Source: Curvularia clavata (taxonomy: Eukaryota). From it: a stretch of 64,000 bases of DNA. Positions 12,369-42,266 of the stretch are shown piece after piece; positions within the stretch are counted from its first letter, which is position 1; each line of letters begins with the position of its first letter. The notes beneath the pieces were generated by a model. The model had not been told where the DNA came from. It did not search any database and worked only from the letters and a program-made list of their open reading frames with translations. The DNA lies in the NCBI GenBank assembly GCA_023920165.1, contig CP089280.1, positions 1,488,001 through 1,552,000 on the forward strand. Direction: 5' to 3'. The position numbers were made by a program, and so were the translations under genes.

Positions 12369-15111
12369 CTACCAACGGAACGTATCCCCCGGCAGCAAAA
12401 AATTCGCCTCTTCAAACGTAATCACACGATCCATATCTAGAAAATGCGAATCCATAAACGCATCACTGAGATTAAGCAGAGACTGGTCTTGAGTACTTTG
12501 CTGTGTCCCCGGCACGGCACCTAGCGCATTATTGTTGTTATGATACGGGGAAGGCGCAGCATGATACAACGGTGGAGCAGGAGGATAGCTAGGTGTTGCA
12601 GGTACCTGCGGCGAATTGTAGAGTGGCGATGGTGCCGTGGATAGACGCGGGATGAAGGCGGCTGGGGAGGTGAGTGTGTTGCGTGCTGCATCTGGGTGTC
12701 TTGGGCTAAGTGTCGTCTGGCTGTTGAAGCTACTTTTCCGCACATGATGGTCTTTTATCCCTGGACGCTCGTGTGTAACGCTCTCAGGGCGGGTCTGGGG
12801 CGTGGGTGCATACGTGGGACTGGCAAAGTGATGCGGGTATAATGATATGCCGCTGTGGTCGTAGAAGTCGAAGCAGAAGTTGGGGTCGTTCTGGCAGGCG
12901 TCGTGGAGGAGCGAGAGTTGCTCGGCGTACAGACCGGCTTGGGTGTTGGGTCTTTGATCGTCATTGCACCGCTTTTGCCAGCGTGAGGACATGTCACAGA
13001 GATCGTGGACTAGGCGTTGGAACTCTGGTCGTAGAGGGCGTCGTGTAGCTTGGTGCTCGAACAAAAGGGCTTTGGCGGCGACGAAGGCGCAAAAAGAGAA
13101 TTGCACGTTAACAAAGGGAATTGGTGTGTGAGCTAAGAACTTGTTGACAATGTTCGAAGTCTCGATTGCAGCGAGCTCGCAGGTCTGCGCACTGCATTCT
13201 TTCGGGAGAGCGACAAAGTCGTTCCATTCTTTGGGAGGGTGCCCGATTGGATGATGGAGCAGTATCATTGACGTATTATGAGTGATGTGGGCTAAAGTGA
13301 GATTGGGGTCCATGTCGACCACTGTCCTGTCGGCGGAGATATTAGAGTCCTTCCACCTGGGCGGAAGGAACATTTTCCACTGAACGAGTCGTAGGTCCAG
13401 CTCTTTGAATCTTGTCAGCCAGCTGACGGCATTCTCTTTATCTTGCCAGTTGATTCGTTGCTGGAGGAAGAATGTAGTGACTTGACTTAGACTCTCGGTT
13501 GCCTCGACACAATACGCAAAAGCGCCGAGTTTGGATGCGTCAATGTAGCTGTTGCTAGAATTTGGACTAGCACCTGGAAGCAGTTCGGTGGTTGGGTCAT
13601 CCTCGTTGTACTGAGCAGGCACGTTTGCCAGCGAGCGCCCGATACGAGCTGCTGCTTTGTTCCAGATTCCTGAAATGGTTGTTAGTAAGCCGAGTGATAT
13701 TAGGTGAGCTATATTGGCTCTCGTTTTAGGCTCAAGACCTAGTAGATGAAGGCATACAATAGACCGAGAAGTGGTCCAGATGCATCCGTTCTCCAGCAGA
13801 TCAGAGGAGCTCACATACCAAAATAGGGTGTGGTGACAGGCTCTTCACGCGTGAAATAGCCTCCGTCTGCCGGAAGCCTCCGATGGACATCTTCTGCCGT
13901 CAGACTAGTATTCCACCCAGCCGACACTGAACAAAACCGATCGAGCAAGAAGATGACCCAGAACAGTCTTCTTCGCTCTTCCAGCTCCGTCCAGTCATTC
14001 GTAGGCTTCACTAGACGTACAGGCGGCATCAGTGATCTAAGTTGCGACGGCGACGGCTCAGTAGTAAGCTGAAGGTAGTCGATAGTCCTAGTGAGCGACC
14101 CGATGAGCGGCCATGCCCTCTGCGGTTGGCCATCATTCAAAAGGTCAAACACAAGAAAGATGAGGGCCTGCAGACTCTCAATAGTGACATTCCGCATCGC
14201 ATGTGTTTCCACAATCATACGCGAGACTTGGATCTGCTGGAGGATCTGATCCTGATCCAAAAACAGCACTCCAGGGTCCATGTGGCGCAGCCCAACAGCG
14301 ACCAGGGCATGGAGAACAAGCACCAGGCCAGGGTCTTGGGATCCTTGACGGACTCGTGTCTGGAGGCGCTTTTTGTGGATGTAGGGAATCCAGTGGTGGA
14401 AGGAGATGCAGAAGAAATCCGCGAGCTTTTCGAGGAGTGGCTGCGGCGGAAGATGCTGGGCAATGTCGACGTCGCCGAATGGGAAAAGCCAGTTCTCAAG
14501 AAGAGGTGTGGTGTGTTTTCTCTTCAACGGATTCGAAGACATTATTTCTTCTTTATGGACAGCTGGCGCACTTTCTCTTGACAACTTCGCATATTGCTGT
14601 TGAGAAGTAGGATTGGTAGGCTGAGCATGCTCATTGCCACGAGACGGGGTTTCTGTCGCCGTGGTGGTTGGTGTTTCTTGACTGACAGCCTGTTTGGTAG
14701 GCGCATCCTCATCTACATAACGTGCACGTATCTGTCCATTTTCGTCCAGGAGTATCTTCTCCAAAAAAGCTGTTGTTTGTAAGACGCGTCTCTTGGTAGA
14801 AGGATGCTAGCATACCAACGCGCCGAGTCAAGGCCTCAACAGCACCCGGCTTAAGCCCTGGCTTATTCTTGGGCTGGTACACGCATTCCGACGCTGCGTC
14901 TCAGGTCAGCGAAAGAGCGTGGGTCCCTTTAAAGCAGAGACATACAAAGCCTCAGGCAATGAGTACACGAAGGCAGTTCGCGTGAGCAACGCAGCTTGCG
15001 TTGCTTGCAGCTGACGCAGGCAGGGATCTCGCCGGTGGCGGAAACGGGAGCATCGTCCTCTGCTGCTTGACTGCCATTGCCAGTCGAGTAATTGGTCCAG
15101 CTAGCCGACAT
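12369..15111 (-). CDS. Zn(II)2Cys6 transcription factor with a fungal-specific TF (middle homology) domain
   Basis: Exons 15111-14946, 14893-14816, 14769-13819 and 13669-12369. Zinc cluster [31 protein letters not shown]; Fungal_trans motif [23 protein letters not shown]. Confidence 0.92.
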
Positions 15112-15535
15112 CAGCGCGACATTTCCAGAGGCCGATCGCAAAAGGAAGAAATAGTGGGCTTGAGATACGGTATCCAGCGGGACGGGCATCGGGTTAAAGC
15201 ACCCGCTTCTTTTCTCTCCACATTTCAGCCCCGCGAGACTAACCTTCGTTTCGGCTCAGCATTGCCTCCTTGGATAAATTCCCGCTGCCGCAGACTAAGC
15301 TACGTGCCGACATGCGTGAACGAGATCTGGTGATGTCGTGGCATGATGGCAATCGTGCAGCGGGTGTGCTGCCTTTTCTATGGATAATACAGGTTGCATG
15401 CAAGACGTTGACGATGAATACTCCAACAGAACCAAAAACTTAGGCTACAGCATGAGATAACCGATACTGAGGGATCCTACACCTACATAGTCACTAGGCC
15501 AGCATCACGACCACCACATACCATACAAAAACACT

Positions 15536-17706
15536 ATGCCACCATTATCAGGCTTCTCCTCTAACCCCCTGCTCACCCGCACCCATTTCCAAACCGCCGC
15601 CACAGCCCTCCTACATGCCCTGCTCCCCTACCAATCCCCCGGCGGTGCGCGAATCAGCCTCCCACTAGCAACAGGCACGCATTTCGACGACATCGCCGCG
15701 CAACTAGAAGGCTATGCGCGTCCCCTCTGGGCCGTCGGCGCCCTCCTGCACTCACAGTCCCTCTCCCCCGCCGAACAGCAGCAACTCATTTCACCATTTG
15801 CCCGCGGCTTAGCCAACGGCACCGACCCTTCTCATGCCGAGTACTGGAGCCCAGTCGTCGTTCGCGACCAGCGAATGGTCGAAATGGAGATTATCTCTTT
15901 TGCCCTCCTCGCTGCTCCAGATGCCATGTTCCACTCGCAATCCCCCAAGGCGAAGCAGAATATCACCGAGTGGTTGACAACGCTCAACGGAAAGGACTTT
16001 CCAACCACAAATTGGCTCTGGTTCAGGGTCTTGACGAATCTAGCACTGATCAAAGTGTGCGATGTGCCGAAGGAAGAGGTGCTAGGGCTCATGAAGCAGG
16101 ATTTGGATTTGATGGAGGGGTTTTATAGGGGCGAGGGGTGGGCAGCGGACGGAGTGTGGAATGACGAGGGGAGGCAGGCGGATTACTATTCTGGCAGCTT
16201 TGCGATTCAATTCTCGCAGCTCATTTACGTTAAGATGGCCGGAGATTTGGATCCGGATCGGTGCGAGAGGTTTCGGGAGAGAGCGAAGGAGTTTGCGGGC
16301 GGCTTTTGGCGGTATTTTGATACTGATGGTATGGTTCCCTTTTTCTGTGGTATATGAAATTTGAATAGCGGCTGACGAACGAATACTCAGGTGCCGCAAT
16401 CCCCTTTGGCCGCAGTCTAACGTACCGCTTTGCCCTGGCAGGTTTCTGGTCCGCCGTTGCCTTCGCAGAAGTATCTCTGCCCGCTCCTCTAGACGACTGG
16501 GGCGTAATAAAAGGCCTGCTCCTTCGACACTTCCGCTGGTGGAGCAAAAACCCCGATGTATTCAACTGCGACGGGACTCTTACCATCGGCTTTGCATATC
16601 CGAACATGTACCTCAGCGAAGACTACAACAGCCCGCAGTCGCCCTACTGGGCCATGAAATCTTTTCTCGCCCTTGCCCTATCTGAAAATCACCCCTTCTG
16701 GACAGCTGCTGAAAAACCACTCCCAAATATACCCGGCCCCAGCACCGTTATGAAACTTGAGCCACCAATGCACATCCTCTGTGACCACCCAAATCACCAC
16801 TTCCTACTCTCCATGGGCCAGTTCTGTCCCTGGCCTCTCAAAGCCACAGAAGCAAAATATGGTAAATATGCCTACTCCTCACACTTCGGCTTTAGTGTGC
16901 CTACTGGCCCTTTGCTCCCGCAACTCGCGCCCGACAGCACACTCGCGCTGAGTAAAGACGGGGGCGATACATGGCGCGTACCATGGAAAGTCAGTTCACC
17001 TCGCTTCGACACCGTAGATGTATTGCGTAATGGCGAAGTAGCAGAGACACTGCCTGTGCTGAAAAGCGAATGGAAACCCTGGAAAGATGCGAATGTGCTC
17101 GTGACTACGCTTCTCATCCCGCCAACGAAGCGCTGGCCAGATTGGTATATCCGGTGGCATCACATCACCAACACTGGCTTACAAGATGTCTCACTCCAAG
17201 CTGTGCAGGGTGGCTTTGCGATTCAAGGCCGGGGCAGTAGAAAGGGCGAGGTATTACCGTCCCTGACAATCGCATCAGAGCTGAATACTCCAAACATGCA
17301 CAATGAGATACCGTTTCCCGAAGGAACACTCACCCAGGATAACCGTTCAGCACTCGTGGTATCGAGTGCGGGAGCGAGCGGGATCCGCGCGTTGAGTGCG
17401 TACAGCGAACAAGCTTCTGTGGTGCAAGAACAGGCGCAGGTGCTTAAGCCGGATGCGAATACGAATCTCATCTGGCAGCGTACGCTTATACCGACCATCC
17501 ATGTACAAGGGGAGGCGAAGTGTTCTATCTCGGGGGAGAAGCCGGTGCAATTTGGCTGTGCGGTGTTTGCGCTTGCGTTAACGGAGAACAGGGCTGAGCG
17601 GTATGCGGATGGGCTGGATGTGGAGAAGTTGTGGTTGGATGCGCCTGTCATTAGGGCTGGGGATGAGGAGAAGAGCGAGGACGGGTGGTATATTAGAGTT
17701 GGGTAG
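15536..17706 (+). CDS. DUF2264 family protein, putative carbohydrate-active (alpha/alpha)-barrel enzyme
   Basis: Exons 15536-16328 and 16391-17706. Family motifs [67 protein letters not shown] and [17 protein letters not shown]. Confidence 0.88.
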
Positions 17707-31930: not shown

Positions 31931-34014
31931 GTGGGTGGTCGGTGCGAGGTGGCTGAGCCGGGATGGACATGGAAATGGTTACATGGACATGGACCTGGGC
32001 GGGTCTTGCAAACGACGTTGCGTTTGGCGCTCGGGAAGTCGATGCGGAGGAGGTTGGTAGTTTATCTGATCCTTCAGGAATGTTTGAAACAATACGATGA
32101 CGAGATTAGAGGGAAATGCAGCTCAGTTTGTTATGCTATGCAGGTGTGTCTGATATTGATTGATGGTGTATAATGCTCCATATTGGGATCCGACGTAACC
32201 GCCGAACGGATTTAGTGTTGAAGATAGGTTGAAATGTGTGATTTGAACATGGCCAAACGAACTGCTCCCCTTCTTCGAGAGCTTTCTGCTACGCCAACAA
32301 TACCTGGTCTTTCAACTTGATAAGTTCGTTACGTACACCCACCATCAGACTGTTCCCCTCTTATCGGCCGTGAGGCTAACTCAAATTTGCCTGGACAACA
32401 CAGAAACCTCTAGGTCGACATTTGGTTATAGCGCCCCACCAGCCAACATGCAATACAGTGGCGTCCAAAACACTAACTTATATTAGTGGAGTTGCTATCA
32501 TCTGATGCGTCTCAAGACCAGCCATTCAAAGGATGGATTTGGTTAGACACGCGCTCATTGCTCTTCATTAGTCCGAAAACTGAAGCTCTCCGTGACAATT
32601 TACCAATTATGCAATCTTTGGTGTGACCATGATACCGATTATGAACGGCGGCTACGAGGAAACAATCCTAACATACCGGGATGTAAATAGTCTAGCGAGC
32701 GAATAGGAAGTTTGCGGGGTCGAAACAAACATAAACAGGTGAGTTCTTGCTGGTGGAGTTACCGAATCGTATGTAACATAGGCTAGATAGCCGCGACCCG
32801 ATAGGCTGGGTTGGTCCTCCGCCACTGTTGGTACACGTGTCAGAGCTACGACATATCGAATGGCATACTGAGCTTCAAGCCATGGTGGTATCAGGACATT
32901 CGGCCAAGTGTTGGAAGTAGATGGCAGCTGATCCTGGACTTGTTGATCTTACTCTAGGCTTGCTTTTGGTCTTTTGGTACTCTGGTAAATCTCCTAGATA
33001 GCATCCACCCGGGAATCCATTTCCTCATCACGTGAGTTGCACTTGATGCATGCGCGTGTTATGCGCTGTGAACTTGTGAATACACGATGGAAGCGATGTA
33101 GAATGTTCGGAAATAGACGACTAGACGACGTGTCTAAAATTTCCCTCTACTGTAATTGGCCGCTATTTTTGTGCAAGTGGGGTGGTCGGCTCCGCGCTTA
33201 ACGATAATGGGACCCCGCTATCGCAACCCCCCAAAAAGTCCTCGAAGACCACCATGACGACCGCCTTCAAAACGACCAACCCGTGTGAGAATTCATGCGA
33301 TAACCTCTGAGGCTGGAAATTTGCATTCTAATTCGCTTGCTCAGCAGCTTCAACACGCCTCCGCAGCTTTTGTGGTTGTCGCAATCGTTTCAAGTCATGA
33401 GGCTCCAAGCGCTAATATAACTGTGCCACAGTCTTACATCAACGTCACTTCACGTAGGGGCCAAAACTAAGAATATGCCTACTTGCATGTTGTTTTTAAT
33501 ACCACGGCGGCAATGGAGAACACGCTAGGCTAACCATGCGGCCACGCCAGCGGTTACACACTCGCTCTGTACGGCTACATCCTCACCGGTGCACGGCCTG
33601 ACAGCTTCCGAAGCCTACGCCGCATGCAGATGTCAAGGCAGATGCCCTCAGCCGCTTTTCTTGGCATATTTTCTGGAGGTTGGGGACGGGTCCTTGCGGC
33701 TAGCTCGTGCGATGAATGGTGGATGAGCTCGGCCATGCATCGATTCCCAGAATCAAGGCGTGGTTTGCATGTACGCCGCAGTAGCATTCGTGTTTGATGT
33801 TTGTTATATGACCCAATCAGGAGAGTACCCGGTAGAGGCTTATACAGTAGCTGAGTGCTGTTATAGTGCCGTGGGTGTAAGTACACAAGATACACCTGCA
33901 GCTTACTTTCAGTCTGGCATCTATCCCCCAGACATTTTCTCAATCCATCTCCACATAATACTCTACACTTCTTTTTGAATATCTGCAGTACCTTGTTCAT
34001 TCTTTTCTTTTCTA

Positions 34015-36489
34015 ATGCCTTATCCTATCACCATTCCAGGCTCTCCATCAAGTATGGCTCGGCCAGAGAGAAGTCCCATGCACTGGCCTAGCTTTCCAGA
34101 CGTTCCTATTTACCTCGACACAAGCAACAGCCACGCCGCCAACAAGACCTATGGAACAACACCCACAACCCCAACTACACCAGAAAGGGTACCAAGCGGA
34201 CGCCCAACACATCTCAGCCCAGCCCACATCAATGCCCCACCAATCAGTCCAGTAGAGCCCAGCCCTACCACAACCATAGAGACAAGCTCGGATCACAACT
34301 CCCAAATCTGGCCAATTCCCGAACCTCCTCCAGAAGTGAGGCATCAGAAGCCTCGACGACCCTATCTTCAATTTATCCCAAACGACCGGCCCCGTCTTCG
34401 CCTTGGTGAATCTCATCTGACGGTTCCTCAGCAGGCTCCCGTCCCTGAGAGCCAATATCCCCAAGATCACAAGTCGCACCACGGTCTTGGTATTAGCGGT
34501 GGTCCGCCCAAGCCACCATCCATCACAGTACAGCCACCACCATTTGACAGTGAGAAAGTTGAACCAGCCACAAATATTGCACAACGAATCGAGGAGAAAC
34601 TCTGGAACTACAATTCTTCAGGCAACGTTATTGAGCGATGGATTCTTGAGATAGTTAGTTGGCTGATCAGCGCTATCTGCATGGCTGCTATAATCGCTGT
34701 CCTGGCCGTTCTCAAGGACAAGCCAGCTGCAAAATGGCCTTTCGATAAGATGGGGCTCACTCTGAATGCCTTTGTATCTGTACTCTCCCGAATTGCCGGG
34801 GCTGCTCTCCTCCTGCCAGTAGCAGAAGCACTTGGCCAACTGAAATGGAGCTGGTTTGTTAGGGGCGACTCGAAGAAGATGTGGGACTTTGAAATGTTCG
34901 ACAACGCATCACGAGGACCTTGGGGCGCTTTCCTTCTTCTCATACATACAAGGGGCAAGACAATTGCTGCTCTGGGTGCGCTCGTCACAATCTTTGCGCT
35001 TGCATTGGACCCTTTCTTCCAACAGGTCGTCAGTTTTCCAGAACGGTGGACATTGCAGGAAGCGAACAGCTCTATACCTCGAACGGTACGATATCAGCCC
35101 GTTTACGATATTGAGTATGTGAACGGTATCGACATGGCTGAAACCGACGCGGACATCTGGGCCATCGCTGACCAATTCTTTCTCCATAACGGGACGCAGC
35201 CTGTTCCCTATGGGAATGGCACTCGTGCAGATATTCCCATCTCTTGTCCCAGTACCAACTGCACTTGGCCAAGCTATGAGACATTGGGAATGTGTAGCCA
35301 GTGTGTCGAAACACCAAATCTCCTAAACTTCACGTGTATGGAGACTCAGGTGGATTGGACCTCAACGCTTACTGCGAATGTGTCGACTTTCCCTAATACC
35401 ACAGTATGTGGATATTTCCTAAATTCCACCAGTGATGCACCAGTTCTCATGTCTGGATACATCGTGGAAGAAAATGGGAACAAGACCGGAGAAGCTTTGA
35501 TGATGCGAACTTTGCCGCTGGTAACCAACCCAGAACGATATGCTTTATGGGGAGACGGATCCATCAACTTCAAACACATACGAAATCCTATTATTGATTT
35601 CGTGATCGCGGCCAGTGCGAACAGCGCTGATGTCTACGCGGAGAAGATGCCCGTAGTCCACGAATGTGTTGTCTCCTGGTGCGTTAAAACCCTGGAGTCA
35701 TCTTACCACTTAGGCACCTACGAGGAGAAAATAACGAACGTCTTCTTAAACGAGACCCCAGGATCGTTTCCATGGTCAAGCACCCAAAGTGAAGACGAAA
35801 ACATCCTTATCGTGGACTATTTCGACAACGTAACGATCTCCGCACCCCCAGTGAACCCAGATTCAGCTAAATACGGATGGGGAGTCAACAATGATACCAT
35901 GTTCAACACGGTCTATGTGTTTGATCGCATATTTCCGGCATTCACAACTCTTACGAACTATTCTGAAACTCCGGTACTTCGCTGGAGGACTGGAAGCTTT
36001 ACACAGGCCAGAACTAAATATTTGGATTACAACCCCTGGTTACCGCCAAATAATATCTCGCGTCATATGGAACGGATGACCGAAGCCCTTACAAATGTTG
36101 TTCGATCATCAACTAGTAAAGAAATGGTATTCGGTCAAGCTTTCGATAATGAAGTTTATGTGGAAGTCAAATGGGGATGGCTGAGTTTGCCGCTGTGTCT
36201 GCTTCTTGTCAGCTGTTTGTTTCTCGTTTCGACAGTGATCAAGAGCGCTGCTGAAAAAGGCCAAGTTAGTATAAGGAAGAACTCTGCGATTGCGACCTTG
36301 CTTTACGGGCTTCCAGACCATTACCAGAAACGACTCGCAAAATCCAACTCGGAGGGTACACCAAGGGCGAGAGCTAAGGAGTTGAAAGTGAGACTGTCCG
36401 CTACACGCGGCTGGAGAAGTTCCGGAATGTTATTCACTCCTTCGACACCGAAAGGCCCTTCCAATCTACCACCACCGGGGTGGATTTAA
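34015..36489 (+). CDS. DUF3176-type multi-pass membrane protein, paralog 1 (intronless, 824 aa)
   Basis: Pro-rich N-terminus. TM block WILEIVSW...LTLNAFVSVLS...PVAEALGQLKWSWF...DFEMFDNASRGPWGA...LALDPFFQQVV (DUF3176 signature as recalled). Large Cys- and NxS/T-rich ectodomain (CPSTNCTWPSYETLGMCSQC) and a final TM VEVKWGWLSLP. Confidence 0.85.
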   Translation: MPYPITIPGSPSSMARPERSPMHWPSFPDVPIYLDTSNSHAANKTYGTTPTTPTTPERVPSGRPTHLSPAHINAPPISPVEPSPTTTIETSSDHNSQIWPIPEPPPEVRHQKPRRPYLQFIPNDRPRLRLGESHLTVPQQAPVPESQYPQDHKSHHGLGISGGPPKPPSITVQPPPFDSEKVEPATNIAQRIEEKLWNYNSSGNVIERWILEIVSWLISAICMAAIIAVLAVLKDKPAAKWPFDKMGLTLNAFVSVLSRIAGAALLLPVAEALGQLKWSWFVRGDSKKMWDFEMFDNASRGPWGAFLLLIHTRGKTIAALGALVTIFALALDPFFQQVVSFPERWTLQEANSSIPRTVRYQPVYDIEYVNGIDMAETDADIWAIADQFFLHNGTQPVPYGNGTRADIPISCPSTNCTWPSYETLGMCSQCVETPNLLNFTCMETQVDWTSTLTANVSTFPNTTVCGYFLNSTSDAPVLMSGYIVEENGNKTGEALMMRTLPLVTNPERYALWGDGSINFKHIRNPIIDFVIAASANSADVYAEKMPVVHECVVSWCVKTLESSYHLGTYEEKITNVFLNETPGSFPWSSTQSEDENILIVDYFDNVTISAPPVNPDSAKYGWGVNNDTMFNTVYVFDRIFPAFTTLTNYSETPVLRWRTGSFTQARTKYLDYNPWLPPNNISRHMERMTEALTNVVRSSTSKEMVFGQAFDNEVYVEVKWGWLSLPLCLLLVSCLFLVSTVIKSAAEKGQVSIRKNSAIATLLYGLPDHYQKRLAKSNSEGTPRARAKELKVRLSATRGWRSSGMLFTPSTPKGPSNLPPPGWI

Positions 36490-36642
36490 TTGTATTTGAA
36501 TATCAAGGATTTACTATCCTTTTTACTACAATGGAGTACAAGAAATACAAAAGAAATTGTCAAAGAAATATTAGAAATGATACCTTCCGAAACGGTCTGC
36601 AGCAACATTGATAGCAGACTCTTTGTAAAATCTCCCTCCTCT

Positions 36643-37415
36643 TCAACTGCTTCCTCCGCGTTCGGCACCACGACCGCGCTCGACTAGACCCTCGGAAGAT
36701 TTAGCATTACGTTTGCCGCTTCCACCACGTTCGGCACCACGGCCTCGCTGTACGAGCTCTGTTTCTCCTTGGGACCTCCGTCGACCGCTTCCTCCGCGTT
36801 CTGCGCCGCGACCTCGCTCGACTAGACCCTCGGTAGGTTCAGCTTCGCGTTTACCACTTCCACCACGTTCTGCACCACGGCCTCGCTCTACGAGCTGTTC
36901 CATTTCTTCTTGAGATCTACGTCGACCACTTCCACCACGTTCGGCACCACGGCCTCGCTGTACGAGCTCTGTTTCTCCTTGGGACCTCCGTCGACCGCTT
37001 CCTCCGCGTTCTGCGCCGCGACCTCGCTCGACTAGACCCTCGGTAGGTTCAGCTTCGCGTTTACCACTTCCACCACGTTCTGCACCACGCCCTCGCTCTA
37101 CAAGCTCCTCTGTTTCTTCTTGGGACCTCCGTCGACCGCTATCTCTCCAGTGAACCCGACCACCCCAGTTCGAGGCTGGACGTTCGACAACAGGTAACCG
37201 TTCTGTACCAGTTGTTCGCTTTGCTTGATTGGCATTGAAGGTTTCAGTATGTCTCTTGACATCCAGTTCCACATTGAGAGAAGGTGTCTAATACAACCGT
37301 CAGCACAGTGATCATTGATGAAAGACTCAAGTCCACCTACGTCGATCAGTGGGACGGCGGCAGAAAGAGTTGGAACGACAAGGGTCGCAACGGCAAAGAT
37401 GATGGTTCCTCGCAT
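36643..37415 (-). CDS. Secreted Kex2-processed repeat protein (KEP), 239-aa multi-copy peptide precursor
   Basis: Exon 1 37415-37341 encodes the signal peptide MRGTIIFAVATLVVPTLSAAVP. A 53-nt phase-0 intron (GTAGGT...GCTGAC...TTAG, 37340-37288) joins it to exon 2 37287-36643, which carries 7x LV[EQ]R-GRGAERGGS[G/S], the first six followed by KR/RRR. Confidence 0.88.
36646..37140 (-). repeat. Coding tandem repeat of 69-72 nt units, with a 210-nt higher-order duplication
   Basis: The sequence at 36721 (tccaccacgttcggcaccacggcctcgctgtacgagctct...) recurs at 36931. The duplicated block is three units (24+23+23 codons). Confidence 0.92.
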
Positions 37416-40028
37416 GGTCGCAGATCCTAGAAGACAGTTGATTGGCCAGCAGATGGATGATCGATAAAATTAAAAGAGTGAAAGATCGCACAGCGAAACG
37501 TTGTCGAAGAAGCTTTGGGTTGTCTGGGAGTGGAGACGAGAACCTCGAGGACGTGTTGATTCATTTATCCCTCATGAACACACCACGGGGATTGCAGATT
37601 CGGTGATACCGCACGACCGACTCACACCTACAACCTTGCTGTCGGCGCTTCAACCCGTGGTCACTCATTACCTTGATAACCGCCTTTGAAGCCACCTATG
37701 CGGTGCAAGGCACACGGAACAGCATGCACAATGCGCGCATCATGCGGAGCTGTACAACCATTGGGAGAAGCAGGCGAAGGCATGATGGTTGAAGTACAAA
37801 CTGGGAAAGGTGAAACACAAAAGCCGACGCGACTGGAACGCGCGGCGTTAGATTGACATTGGTGGAGGCCTTGGAACGTCGCGCAATGGATCAGAAGGCT
37901 CCAGGGGCTTTCATCACATGGAGATATCACATTGGAAGCGCTGGAAGGGCTTTCTACAAGGCAGGTCAAAAGATTTGAGAATATGTAAGTCAAACTCTAG
38001 GCCTGTGATTGCCTTAGTTTTCAACAATTGTTAGAACGATTTCTAACCAATCGAAGATGTATAGTAATGTGACGAGACTTGGCGGCGTTTTGATCCCTTG
38101 ACAACAAATGAAGCGATTGGCTCTGCTTGATCGGTACCTTACGCCAATCAACCGCTCCCGCGACCTAGTCACAGGTGTTCGACATGCGAAATACGTGCCA
38201 GCGCTTCGCCTCCTTCAACAACTTTGTTCAGATTTTACAAAGATTGAATATATGCTGTTTGTACGGGTTTACGAAATCATTGTTAAGTTCCGCTGTTGCG
38301 ATGGTGCGTGGCGTTTTTACCCCTGCATAGCAGCCGCAGTTAGCAGCACCACGCTCGACAATGCAATTGTCACACATTGTCTGCAATCGCAATCGACACG
38401 AGGACTGGTGCAGCTTATACCAGGACTATAGCGGAGTTCTATGATTCGTGCCCTTTGTGGCATGCATGAAGGACCACTTCGATCATGTACACTTTGATTG
38501 CGACATTGCAAGAAACGATACCCATACAAACAAAGTTCTGGGGTATGCTGACCGAGAAGCGTTCACCAATCATGCATTTCTATTAAGCGCCCAGTCTCAA
38601 CACTGACGTCGTTAGGTCTCCTCCATTACCACCCGGGCAAAACAATGAAAATCATGTATACCTTATCAGAAGTGTCCTTCATGCAGGTTCGTCTCTTTTT
38701 TGCTCTTAGTACTACACCTACAGCCCTACCCGTAACTATGTCATGCTTGCACGCACCTCGGTTGTAAGCACCAGGTATAAGTAATCACAACGTTTATGCA
38801 GTGTGATATCAACAGAACCCCTCCGCTTATCCCATTGTCAACGCTTTAGCATTGGCGTCCTTATGGTTCGACGACTTTAGGACCGCACAGGCTTCCTCCA
38901 GCCAGGGTCATTTAGTCATTCAACTGTCACGTGATCATAGCGATTTCTGTAATGAACCTGCTTACATGTGTAAAGCAAAGACTCAGTTTACTCACAAAGA
39001 TAGAATGTTCTATAGTTACTAGAAATAAGAAGTGTGCCAAGTGATGTTTAGATTTCTATTGCCCCAGACATACCCCTTCCCTTCTGCAACCAGCACCTGT
39101 ATACTATGTGCATCACGATATCTGTAAAGATGCATAGCGATTCGGGCCATATGTGAAAATGTTACAAAAAATTCAGTCTTCTTTGACAAGATTCTTAGAA
39201 GAGGAGGCTCTAGTCTCAATCCCGCTCGTCTTTGGTTATGTCCTTCATGCGCGAAGGTGGCGTCTAGAAGTCCCACCGTTGATACGAGTTCGATGTATGT
39301 TTTTCTTTGCGCTGTCTTGCGCTATCTGTATGCTTGTGTCAACGTTGAGCAATCCACGATATCAGGTGTTCGAGAGAGCCTCCAGTTCAACCCCATCGGC
39401 CACGTCAACTTGAGTATAGGCCTATCAGGACTCTGCTGATCCTGCTGCACGTCGATGAAGGAGTAAAATCGCCTTGCGTTATGCCTAGGACATCATGCCT
39501 CATAATCGCACCACTTCCAGCGCTTGCATGCAAGTATGTATTGTGCTTCCAGTGGGTACTGTAATTTTGATCTGCCTAACCCTCTCGAGAATGGTTCATC
39601 AAGCACAGCATTGCGCCACGGCGCTACCACGAATGTCTAAGTACCGCATGATTGGCGCAACTAACTTTGTCGCTCTATAAGCCGCCCAACGACTCATGTG
39701 CTGTCAAGTTACGGCGCTAAGCATCTTACTTCCAATGGTTCAATAATAAAGCCCAGTACACGTCTACAGTTAAACGATATAATTTTCCGATCTAGAACTA
39801 CACGTTTGGTGTCGGCTAATTGCCGAAGCGCGAACTGATAACTAGATCACCTTGACTAGACAAGTTGCCGCCCGCCTACCGGTAGCCGATAAGCGCCTGG
39901 CTTCATCACTGCAACAAGGCTTGAATGCTGCGGATGTGGCTACCAATCATGGGGTCTACAACCTCATTCAAAATACAGCCTCTCGTATCACATCATGTAA
40001 TTTCAAATTTTCGTGCAAACGCAGTCGT

Positions 40029-42266
40029 ATGATGCCGCGAACACGAGAGAAAGTCTTACCTTTTGTTTTCAACGGACCTCAACCTTCCTATTTCCCAACG
40101 AGCAGGGATGCACCAGAACCACCACCTAATGAATATCGGGCTTCAGCACACGAAAAGCCCTCTCTTGACCTACCGGGCCGCCTCGAGCAAAAGCTTGCAC
40201 AATACAATGCATCCCAAAGTGTCCTCAAGCGTTGGTTGTTCGAAATCACAAGCGTCACAATAAGTGCAGTTTGTATGGGTACGAGGATCCTCATTCATTC
40301 AACTTCGCATGTGTCGCTGACTAGTTATTTTTTCAGGCGCAATTATCGGCATCCTGCATTACCTCAAAGACAAGCCCCTCAACGCATGGGCTCCCGGCCT
40401 CACTATTATCACAATTCTCTCAAAAGTTGCGTCAGCGGCGCTCATCTTACCAATATCCGAGGCCATCGGACAGCTTAAGTGGACTTGGTTCCATGGTGAA
40501 AAGTCTAGAGATGTATTCGACTTTGAGATCTTTGATAAAGCGTCGCGTGGTGCTTGGGGCTCGTTCATGCTCTTGTGTCGCACAAAGGGCAAGTCGCTCG
40601 CCGCACTAGGTGCTCTTCTAACAATCCTTCTGCTGGCAATCGATACGTTCTTCCAACAGGTAACCGACTTGCCAGAACGCTGGAAAGAGCAGGGTGAAAG
40701 CTTTATACCACGCATTGTCCGTTACGAACCGGCTCCCGAAAATCAATACCAGGACGACGATACTATACCATTGGCCCTAACGAACAACGAGCTTCGGAGA
40801 GGGATATACCCGTTCTTCTATAACCAGAATGGAACTCGTCCGCTTACGACAGGGAATGCCACGCAAGCCGAGATACCGCTTGTGTGTCCTACCGGTACAT
40901 GCGAATGGCCATCATACGAGACTTTGGGGGTTTGTAGTGCCTGTGAGGATGTCTCGCACCTGCTTGAATACGCTTGCCTTACGACAAAAATGGATTGGAT
41001 TAGGACAGCGAAGGGTCCTGAATTGAATGCTTCTAGCTTTCCACGAGGTATGTTCCACTTATGTACTGAACTTCCTGCTCATTCTCTACAATTCCACAAA
41101 TTATATTCAATGGGTTTGGTATGACCACCAATCCGTCTCAAAGCCGACACCGTCTTTTGCTACTAGCTAATTATTTGTTAACAGATACTGCATGTGGCTA
41201 TTTTCTGAATGCAACCAGCGACAATCCTGTCCTGATGTCAGGTTTTCGAGTTGATAACCTCACCAATCCTGTCCCGGGCGAGACTCTTCTCATGCGGACT
41301 CTGCCGCTCGTCACCAATCTGTTCAGAGAACCACTTTATGGCAACGCGACCATCAGTTTCGATCATATCCAATATCGAATATTAGACGCGTTGATCGTGA
41401 GCTCTGCTGATGGCACTGCTGACAGTGTTTACAAAAAACAGCGCCCTATCGCTCAGGAATGCATGTTGACGTGGTGTGTCAAGACGCTCCGTTCTTCATA
41501 TCAATCTGGTGACTATCGAGAAGAAGTACAAGAGGTGTTTATAAACAACACCAAGGCAGCTTACCCATGGACTGCCATAGTTCATGCCGAAGAACAATAC
41601 GTCGAACAAGGTTTTGCGCCAAATATCAGCATACGTCCCCCCTCGCTAGCAACAGACAAGCCTGCATTCGGGGTTTCCAATGAGACATTCTTCGACTTTG
41701 TGATCATTTTTGACGAGATTTTTCCGTCCATGATTACAGTTACCAGCCCAACGGCGGCGCCCGGCATTAAGATATTTACTAGTAACTCAAAAACATCCCA
41801 ATGGCGTTCCTTCCGATTCAGCCCTTGGCTCGCACCAAATAACGTCACGTACCACTTAGAACGAATGGCTCAAGCTATGACGAATGTGATCAGATCTGAC
41901 ACAGAAAGTAGCGAGCTTATTGCCGGCACTGCTTATGCACGAGAAACATACGTTGCAGTTCATTGGGGCTGGCTTGCGTTTCCGTTAGCAATGCTCTTTC
42001 TAAGTGGTATTTTTCTGGTTTCGACAATTTTAAAAACCTCAAGCGGGAATTACGAAGATATTGGCGTGTGGAAGACATCGGCAATGCCAACTTTGATGTA
42101 TAGTCTACCGAAAGACATACAACATGGGGTTCTATCGACAACTCGCCCAAGGACTATGACAAGCAAGCGCTCAAGTAGGGTTCGAATTAGACTGTTACCC
42201 AAACAAGGCTGGAGGGTTTCTGGCCAAATACCTGCTAGACCACCTCCTCCACCTGGCTTCTTCTAG
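40029..42266 (+). CDS. DUF3176-type multi-pass membrane protein, paralog 2 (2 introns)
   Basis: Exons ~40029-40278, 40337-41047 and 41185-42266; start codon uncertain. Motifs PISEAIGQLKWTWF, DFEIFDKASRGAWGS, LAIDTFFQQV, CPTGTCEWPSYETLGVCSAC and VAVHWGWLAFP; collinear with paralog 1. Confidence 0.85.

Follow-up and report, generated by a model that had tools for sequence, protein, structure and literature searches.

What does a fungus release from a gene whose protein repeats one ten-residue sequence seven times, and at which residues would that protein be cut to release it? The question is raised by a locus within a 64,000-nucleotide stretch of Curvularia clavata DNA (contig CP089280.1), which is the whole of the sequence that we analysed and is referred to below as the window; all positions are counted from its first letter. 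An original prediction, made without database searches, had placed there a neuropeptide-like precursor that would yield the peptide GRGAERGGSG. Precursors of this general kind, the KEPs, carry a signal peptide and repeated near-identical peptides split by KR or RR. They have been surveyed in 250 secretomes (Le Marquer et al. 2019, PMC6339444), and a search of 1,461 genomes has brought together 7,878 of them (Umemura 2020, PMC7329392). Fungal KEPs have been catalogued by the thousand, but for very few of them has a peptide been observed or a role assigned. We believe that the locus as a whole is best explained as a Kex2-processed repeat precursor that releases the 10-mer as a species-specific secreted peptide, an explanation to which we give slightly better than an even chance.

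Gene structure and transcription

The precursor gene lies on the minus strand, where its coding region extends from the ATG to the stop codon over 36643..37415, intron included. As read from the sequence, two exons are spliced to give a product of 239 amino acids. The coding part of exon 1 (37341..37415, minus strand) comprises 25 codons, has its start codon at 37415, and specifies a signal-peptide-like N-terminus as judged from sequence and hydropathy. It is followed by a 53-nt intron of the form GTAGGT...CTGAC...TAG (37288..37340, minus strand), by the coding part of exon 2 (36646..37287, minus strand) and by a TGA stop (36643..36645, minus strand). The intron is needed because the unspliced exon-1 frame continues into a 123-aa ORF and never reaches the repeats. 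The coordinates and architecture of the original prediction were borne out, in that every element it had listed is present where it had been placed on the minus strand.

Nine public sequencing runs were found whose RNA type is a guess only, and the contigs of four of these (X1-X4) were compared with the window over 36000..38000, where only the parts that a contig covers are informative. An X1 contig joins 37137..37287 directly to 37341..37432, and an X3 contig joins 37219..37287 to 37341..37463, in both cases with no other letters, such that two runs from two different studies miss exactly the same 53 nt. The skipped letters end in CT..AC on the plus strand, which corresponds to GT..AG on the minus strand. 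Given an exact GT..AG deletion in these contigs, and with the caveat that the RNA run type is guessed, spliced mRNA is the best explanation, and the precursor gene is very probably transcribed and spliced. An intron left unspliced or a gene left untranscribed had been named originally as grounds for abandoning the proposal, and the X1 and X3 contigs point the other way. The X4 contig, which comes from a relative, is without the homologous intron by 53 nt net, since 63 letters are skipped and 10 other letters stand in their place; the piece of it that aligns to 37344..37960 carries 68 other letters and 11 gaps.

The contigs also provide minimum extents for the untranslated regions. The spliced X3 contig reaches 37463, which gives a 5' leader of at least 37416..37463 (minus strand) that holds no upstream ATG, and ACC precedes the start codon. 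An X1 contig covering 36519..36761 with no other letters spans the stop codon and thereby gives a 3' untranslated region of at least 124 nt (36519..36642, minus strand). The precursor was not found in a protein collection that holds the neighbour protein of its own assembly at 100%, which suggests that the source assembly either has no model for the gene or has a wrong one. Its apparent absence from its own assembly's protein set would then illustrate how short repeat genes escape annotation.

The precursor protein

The N-terminus of the precursor begins with MRG, which places an Arg at position 2, and continues with hydrophobic residues at 4-14, where the Kyte-Doolittle mean over nine residues rises to 2.99; next comes S18-A19-A20 before V21. 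According to the -3/-1 rule, a signal peptide is probably cut after A20. The N-terminal 50 amino acids are 54% identical, across the exon junction, to those of a protein from Bipolaris maydis, ENI06972.1, that passed SignalP-4.1 in Umemura's pipeline (PMC7329392). Judged purely by these heuristics, the signal peptide that had been predicted appears to be present.

Exon 2 opens with a pro-region (37135..37287, minus strand) in which both of the expected dibasic sites, DVKR and QAKR, are found. The same region contains a degenerate unit, here called unit 0, that consists of VVER, then PASNWGGRVHWRDSG, and then RRR, and the intervening residues of this unit keep two Trp, as in the cores of the Alternaria homologues described below. 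The remainder of the coding sequence (36646..37134, minus strand) is an array of seven units, each composed of RRR or KR, six to seven variable acidic residues, LV[E/Q]R and a 10-aa core.

Overall, Cys, Tyr and N-glycosylation sequons are all absent from the precursor, in which G, R and E account for 119 of the 219 mature residues (43, 42 and 34, respectively). A Pfam scan of the precursor matched no families. AlphaFold2 modelled the precursor with a mean pLDDT of 45.5, a pTM of 0.12 and no secondary structure, an outcome that would fit a disordered precursor, but the low confidence is weak evidence of disorder because the alignment held only six sequences.

The repeat array and its selection

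Seven copies of GRGAERGGS[G/S] are present, a count that the original prediction had not given, and the layout it had described (acidic spacer, LV[E/Q]R, core, and KR or RRR) recurs in all seven units, with the last core meeting the stop codon. The residues before the core are LVER in five of the seven copies and LVQR in two, and those after it are KR in three copies, RRR in three, and the stop in the one copy that ends in GGSS. On the minus strand, LVER and GRGAERGGSG together occupy 37063..37104 in unit 1, 36994..37035 in unit 2, 36853..36894 in unit 4 and 36784..36825 in unit 5, and the spacers of units 2 and 5 open with KR-EAEP. Units 3 (36925..36966) and 6 (36715..36756) have LVQR before the same core, and unit 7 (36646..36687) has LVER and GRGAERGGSS, directly followed by the TGA. 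A degenerate DNA pattern for the core matches seven times in the 64-kb window, and all seven matches fall within the gene, with none expected from 100 shuffles. The protein therefore displays the pattern by which KEPs are recognized, with seven near-identical short peptides separated by KR or RR.

Two periods, 69 and 210 nt, are picked up by Tandem Repeats Finder, and the longer reflects a three-unit block of 210 nt that occurs twice with 95% identity (36719..37137, minus strand). This higher-order repeat is a recent duplication of units 1-3 into units 4-6, and in units 2 and 5 the codons are identical throughout the 14-codon block formed by LVxR and the core. When all seven copies of this block are compared, the codons vary in 12 of the 14 columns and the residues change in only two, namely the E/Q position and the final G/S. 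Units 1 and 2 differ by eight synonymous changes in 12.5 sites and by no non-synonymous change in 29.5 sites, and four of the seven residues that precede the block differ between their spacers. The peptide block is thus being held constant and has not simply been copied of late. These comparisons indicate strong purifying selection on LVxR and the core.

Homologues with changed cores

An exhaustive phmmer/HMMER search of 1.84 billion protein representatives (cut-off E <= 0.001) yielded three proteins, two of which were judged to be relatives. One is the B. maydis protein ENI06972.1 (phmmer E 1.9e-18; pairwise BLASTP E 6e-22 over 155 aligned columns) and the other is a homologue from Alternaria alternata (phmmer E 3e-8). 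A profile search added an A. tenuissima protein, a distant A. metachromatica protein and two metagenome proteins; A. arborescens contributes a further family member, and a metagenome scan revealed a homologous locus that we call L001. A word-index protein search with the exon-2 product produced no match at E <= 0.01, and a search of the ESM Atlas produced no usable match. The second-best phmmer match (P0003, 847 aa, E 6.7e-16) has TGAGAEVAGSA-like repeats and no dibasic sites, and was set aside as a compositional match.

All homologues have a common layout in which a signal peptide is followed by xVKR or xVERR, by a second KR, and then by units that each consist of an acidic spacer, LxxR, a core and KR. 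Their cores are 8-10 amino acids in length and differ from GRGAERGGSG. B. maydis carries GRGMRPGQ in three copies along with HRLVKPTK and GRMVTPTK, A. alternata and A. arborescens have cores resembling [DAG][RP]G(G)V[KH]WG[NGP], and A. tenuissima has four copies of GKGVHWGG. Between genera the spacer is more conserved than the core, as can be seen by comparing EAEPTEGLVER in the present precursor with DADPTEDLVER in B. maydis. Inspection of L001 by eye places its two GRGYGYGGN cores after LIER and LVER and its last core after LVVR; one degenerate early unit of this locus has Ser at P4.

Several of these relatives have been catalogued before. Type 514 in Table S2 of Umemura has only two entries, the B. 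maydis proteins ENI06972.1 and EMD93579.1, and type 246 includes the Alternaria homologues RYN41300.1 and RYN35363.1; none of these homologues bears a DUF3328 or pheromone flag (PMC7329392). The C. clavata precursor resembles both types in its signal peptide, in its repeated near-identical peptides split by KR or RR and in sequence homology, and resembles type 514 also in its position beside a DUF3176 gene. It differs from them in its core, which reads GRGAERGGSG where B. maydis has GRGMRPGQ and Alternaria has G[KR]GV[HK]WGG-like sequences. As far as sequence can tell, the precursor belongs to an already catalogued KEP class, and the original prediction overrated the novelty of an architecture whose homologues were on record. 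The rule for membership of a type is a reciprocal BLASTP E < 1e-30 with coverage > 70% (PMC7329392). The value of 6e-22 noted above misses this threshold, and the precursor would therefore be a separate type by that rule, though it is homologous to and syntenic with type 514. The catalogue divides the homologue groups between two type numbers and, in the part of it that was available to us, makes no mention of the LxxR site.

The comparison with homologues helps to judge whether the precursor is cut at all. A secreted protein with this composition might remain uncut, as an intact, disordered, Gly/Arg/Glu-rich component of the wall or matrix whose basic pairs are simply part of a charged repeat, and the extreme share of G, R and E and the lack of a predicted fold are both in keeping with such a protein. 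We nevertheless consider it improbable, given that dibasic sites stand in register at every unit boundary, that each homologue retains such sites although the intervening sequence has been replaced, and that selection focuses on a short block with a site at either end. In addition, known specificity suggests that a disordered chain with nine dibasic sites is unlikely to leave a Kex2-containing Golgi intact.

Candidate cleavage sites

If the precursor is cut, the identity of its products depends on whether LVxR is used as a site. An extension of the Kex2 motif to LxxR has been published, derived from five effectors that are cut by Kex2 in vitro (bioRxiv 10.1101/2020.05.27.120113; PMC8528282). 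The features of this extended site, namely an aliphatic P4, Arg at P1 and an acidic, disorder-prone segment, appear in seven of the seven units. The Kex2 pattern known from yeast has an aliphatic P4, K or R at P2 and R at P1, and Glu or Gln at P2, as in LVER and LVQR, is not a preferred Kex2 context.

The family offers a way to evaluate these sites. [LIVFM]xxR precedes 30 of 30 cores in five family proteins, a count that leaves out L001, which was found later, and the distant, larger multi-core precursors P0007-P0009, which were excluded because their cores are heterogeneous. At four of these 30 positions Lys occupies P2 and makes the site a canonical xKR; these are IVKR and FVKR in A. tenuissima and an LSKR in each of two Alternaria proteins. 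Within the single A. tenuissima protein, the core GKGVHWGG follows IVKR, LVQR, LEQR and FVKR, and QR and KR are hence interchangeable at that position. This family-wide pattern fits the original proposal that LxxR is a processing site, and is the main support, comparative in nature, for cutting at LxxR and release of the 10-mer.

A precedent for such a site is provided by the K2PP effectors SnTox3, ToxA, SIX1, SIX4 and SIX6, which likewise have a disordered, acidic pro-segment that ends in LxxR and is removed there by Kex2. The pro-domain junction cut by Kex2 in SnTox3 is LSKR, the very site found ahead of the first core in the Alternaria homologues. These effectors have a single pro-domain before a folded protein, whereas the present precursor has seven sites, each before an unstructured core of ten residues. 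In the literature searched, we found no paper that joins KEP repeats with LxxR sites, and the papers that contain both terms were on pro-domains.

An important alternative is that the secreted precursor is cut at its dibasic sites only and yields peptides of 20-21 residues with an acidic N-terminal half and a Gly/Arg C-terminal half (2232.04, 2113.01, 2029.99, 2261.05 and 2103.04 Da are examples of the masses to be expected). KR and RR are canonical Kex2 sites with the preferred basic residue at P2, and the conserved block comprises the 14 residues of LVxR and the core, not merely ten, which fits a longer mature peptide. The peptides so produced would be peculiar in two respects: their N-terminal six to seven residues vary freely among the units of one gene, and their net charge would range from -3.5 to +0.8. 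The occurrence of xKR at the LxxR position in four of 30 homologous units is hard to explain without a cut there, and Kex2 does cut LxxR junctions in vitro in the five effectors. We judge cutting at dibasic sites only to be possible but rather unlikely.

The two readings also treat the KR-EAEP sequence differently. The original prediction had drawn attention to this arrangement because it resembles the dipeptides trimmed by Ste13 in alpha-factor precursors, and it is present, as stated, in two spacers (those of units 2 and 5). If only dibasic sites were cut, Ste13 would trim EA-EP from these two units to leave a 17-mer, as in alpha-factor maturation. The X-Ala/X-Pro pairs directly after KR form an alpha-factor-type arrangement in which the product follows the dipeptides, and this would favour a 17-21-mer. 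With regard to the 10-mer, the resemblance does not carry over, since the dipeptides open the acidic spacer and do not adjoin the core, and thus any trimming by Ste13 would shorten the spacer and leave the core untouched. Of 250 fungal catalogues, all except 15 are reported to contain KEX1, KEX2 and STE13.

Genomic neighbourhood

The precursor gene is flanked by two DUF3176 genes. One of these, a membrane-protein gene identified by a Pfam scan (33979..36489, plus strand), is a convergent neighbour whose stop lies 153 nt from that of the precursor, and its protein has its best named matches in B. maydis and Pyrenophora teres (76%) and in Parastagonospora nodorum (72%), identities that put the window within Pleosporales but outside each of these three species. 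L001 carries the same tail-to-tail pair of DUF3176 and precursor genes with a gap of 179 nt, and the 3' end of its DUF3176 gene is 73% identical in DNA. In two strains of B. maydis, the accessions of the precursor and a DUF3176 protein are consecutive (ENI06971.1/ENI06972.1 and EMD93579.1/EMD93580.1), which we take to mean that the genes are adjacent. From the adjacency in the window, L001 and B. maydis, we conclude that the locus is orthologous by position and that the core has been replaced in situ. This conserved adjacency was judged in these three cases only, the DUF3176 accessions obtained for A. alternata, A. arborescens and A. tenuissima being from other assemblies or paralogues. No functional description of DUF3176 was found in the literature searched.

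The other neighbours are ordinary genes that encode Snf7, SAPS, chitin synthase, ketol-acid reductoisomerase, a ubiquitin-conjugating enzyme and sugar/MFS transporters. The 64-kb window has 156 stop-to-stop ORFs that reach 105 aa or more, and a Pfam scan of all of them detected no DUF3328, tyrosinase or other tailoring enzyme, with the caveats that short exons of split genes would escape such a scan and that tailoring genes could lie beyond the window. This result bears on the idea that the encoded protein matures into a modified or cyclised ribosomal peptide, a RiPP comparable to ustiloxin and the dikaritins or to victorin, for which the 10-mer would be the backbone only. RiPP precursors of that kind are KEPs too, a DUF3328 gene lies near 22% of catalogued KEPs, and the dikaritin precursors for ustiloxin, phomopsin and asperipin share the signal peptide and the Kex2-delimited repeats. 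Their cores, however, are Tyr-containing tetrapeptides and their genes adjoin those for DUF3328 proteins and tyrosinase, neither of which is seen here, and the homologues have been catalogued without a DUF3328 gene in their vicinity. Known cyclisation runs through Tyr, whereas a precursor without Tyr or Cys offers no handle for chemistry of the dikaritin type. A modified or cyclised product therefore strikes us as very improbable.

Relation to pheromone and other repeat precursors

The closest resemblance in layout is to MF(alpha)1 and the ascomycete alpha-pheromones, which have the same pre-pro-repeat organization, with KR followed by Glu/Asp-Ala/-Pro dipeptides, and which mature by Kex2, Kex1 and Ste13. 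In alpha-factor the dipeptides adjoin the mature peptide, whereas in the present precursor they stand at the head of an acidic spacer of 11 residues, which a second site, LVxR, closes before the core. Could the gene nonetheless be the one from which this fungus makes its alpha-type mating pheromone, as its signal peptide, pro-region, repeats, KR sites and X-Ala/X-Pro pairs might lead one to ask? The C-terminal motif reported for Pleosporales alpha-pheromones, PYG[L/M]P[I/V]G, is absent from the precursor and from its homologues, occurring neither in GRGAERGGSG nor in any homologue core, and the catalogued homologues carry no pheromone flag. We agree with the original prediction that the core does not look like such a pheromone, and give the idea hardly any weight.

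Rep1 of Ustilago maydis provides another comparison, for it is likewise a Kex2-processed repeat precursor with no Ste13 signature at its product. The Rep1 peptides are longer and hydrophobic and stay attached to hyphae, whereas the peptides expected here would be short, charged and Gly-rich.

Discussion

We are confident that the locus encodes an expressed, secreted precursor of the KEP type, and we see the 10-mer as its released product with about even prospects, perhaps a shade better. If Kex2 processing at both kinds of site is the correct reading, the signal peptide would be removed at about residue 20 and the disordered precursor would travel through the Golgi, and a Kex2-type convertase would cut after DVKR, QAKR and the unit-ending KR or RRR, with the LV[E/Q]R in front of each core as a further cutting site. 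The trailing K and R residues would then be taken off by a Kex1-type carboxypeptidase. The products would be six molecules of GRGAERGGSG (monoisotopic 902.43 Da), one of GRGAERGGSS (932.44 Da), and acidic spacer by-products of 10-11 residues (calculated masses 1228.59, 1347.62, 1145.57, 1376.62 and 1188.61 Da). We infer each of these cleavage steps, and likewise the function of the core; what the data themselves show is the structure of the gene and its spliced form, selection on LVxR and the core, a scaffold shared with homologues and a conserved position. Amidation of the core, which the original prediction had itself called speculative, is not supported: PAM is reported missing throughout fungi, at least in the part of that source available to us (PMC6529398), and the Gly before KR is for this reason not regarded as an amidation signal here.

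The core may act as a species-specific secreted peptide, either as a signal or as an interaction factor, that is kept constant within the gene by selection, and between genera the core is replaced as the processing scaffold is retained. Its function may be hard to show, given that published single knock-outs of KEP genes have been without detected phenotype. In F. graminearum, single knock-outs of six KEP genes gave no detected phenotype, and the same is stated for knock-outs of kep genes in C. cinerea in the portion of that source available to us.

A more ambitious reading would join most of these observations. The locus might be a position-conserved Pleosporales cassette beside DUF3176, with a fixed scaffold whose core is swapped between genera and then frozen, such that the product serves as a species-specific signal that co-evolves with a receptor or target. 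The DUF3176 neighbour could be the partner of the peptide, whether as receptor, exporter or immunity factor, and the repeated LxxR would amount to a second cutting rule. We regard this combination as a long shot. If it were true, repeated LxxR would be an uncounted cutting rule that KEP-mining pipelines ignore, and the peptides that they predict would be wrong for such families.

Even with these reservations, the locus is a clean, testable case. Its 10-mer is invariant over seven copies and has a defined mass, the gene shows evidence of expression, and its relatives have changed cores on a kept scaffold. The family also represents a natural test for the use of LxxR by Kex2 within repeat precursors. 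If Kex2 does use this site, published peptide predictions would need to be revised for families of this kind, because current pipelines delimit repeats by KR, RR or KK.

Genomic neighbourhood of the precursor gene

The DUF3176 membrane-protein gene that converges on the precursor gene (33979-36489) has a counterpart on the other side, 2.4 kb upstream of the precursor start. This second DUF3176 gene (39846-42266, plus strand) was recognized from Pfam matches, with the DUF3176 domain itself at 40321-41124, and because it is spread across three ORFs, it probably contains introns. Thus, the precursor is flanked by two DUF3176 paralogues. No Pfam match falls between the precursor and this second gene (37500-39800).

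A single 989-nt contig from X4, a public sequencing run from a relative, matches both the 3' end of the convergent DUF3176 gene (36101-36180) and 44 nt within the repeat array (36809-36852), and the two matches are spaced 601 letters apart in the contig versus 628 nt in the window. Because one contig matches both genes, there is a weak hint that they also adjoin in the X4 organism. In A. metachromatica, a precursor gene and a DUF3176 gene are located on the same contig, six locus tags apart.

Farther away, about 22 kb from the precursor, Pfam matches mark a Zn(2)Cys(6)/fungal-specific transcription factor gene (12372-15255, minus strand; Zn_clus at 14932-15255 and Fungal_trans at 13814-14806), which adjoins a DUF2264 gene (15491-17703). 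There is no evident link between this transcription factor gene and the precursor.

Annotation, strand and upstream region

The protein collection contains a protein 100% identical to the product of the convergent DUF3176 gene. Neither a word-index search nor an exhaustive search returned a protein matching the precursor of the window (36643-37415). Therefore, the source assembly probably either lacks a model of the precursor gene or models it wrongly.

Several antisense frames are open on the plus strand through the repeat array (36629-37197), such as one of 94 aa that is rich in Pro, Arg and Ser (36629-36913). These frames are a by-product of the repeat; intron polarity in the aligned contigs indicates the minus strand for the gene.

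On its upstream side, a spliced X4 contig (aligned to 37344-37960, minus strand) reaches about 545 nt past the site of the precursor ATG, which reflects either a long 5' leader in the relative or a second transcript that overlaps there. ATAAAT, a TATA-like element, is located about 150 nt upstream of this ATG in the window.

Larger multi-core relatives

Three distant relatives recovered by profile search (P0007, P0008 and P0009; 274-385 aa), from A. metachromatica and metagenomes, each carry many differing short cores. Several of these cores directly follow RR-EAEP or RR-DAEP, as in units with GGH-RR or GGN-RR ends, and LxxR-type units, named for the proposed Kex2 site, are present beside them. 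Thus, two processing layouts are combined within one precursor.
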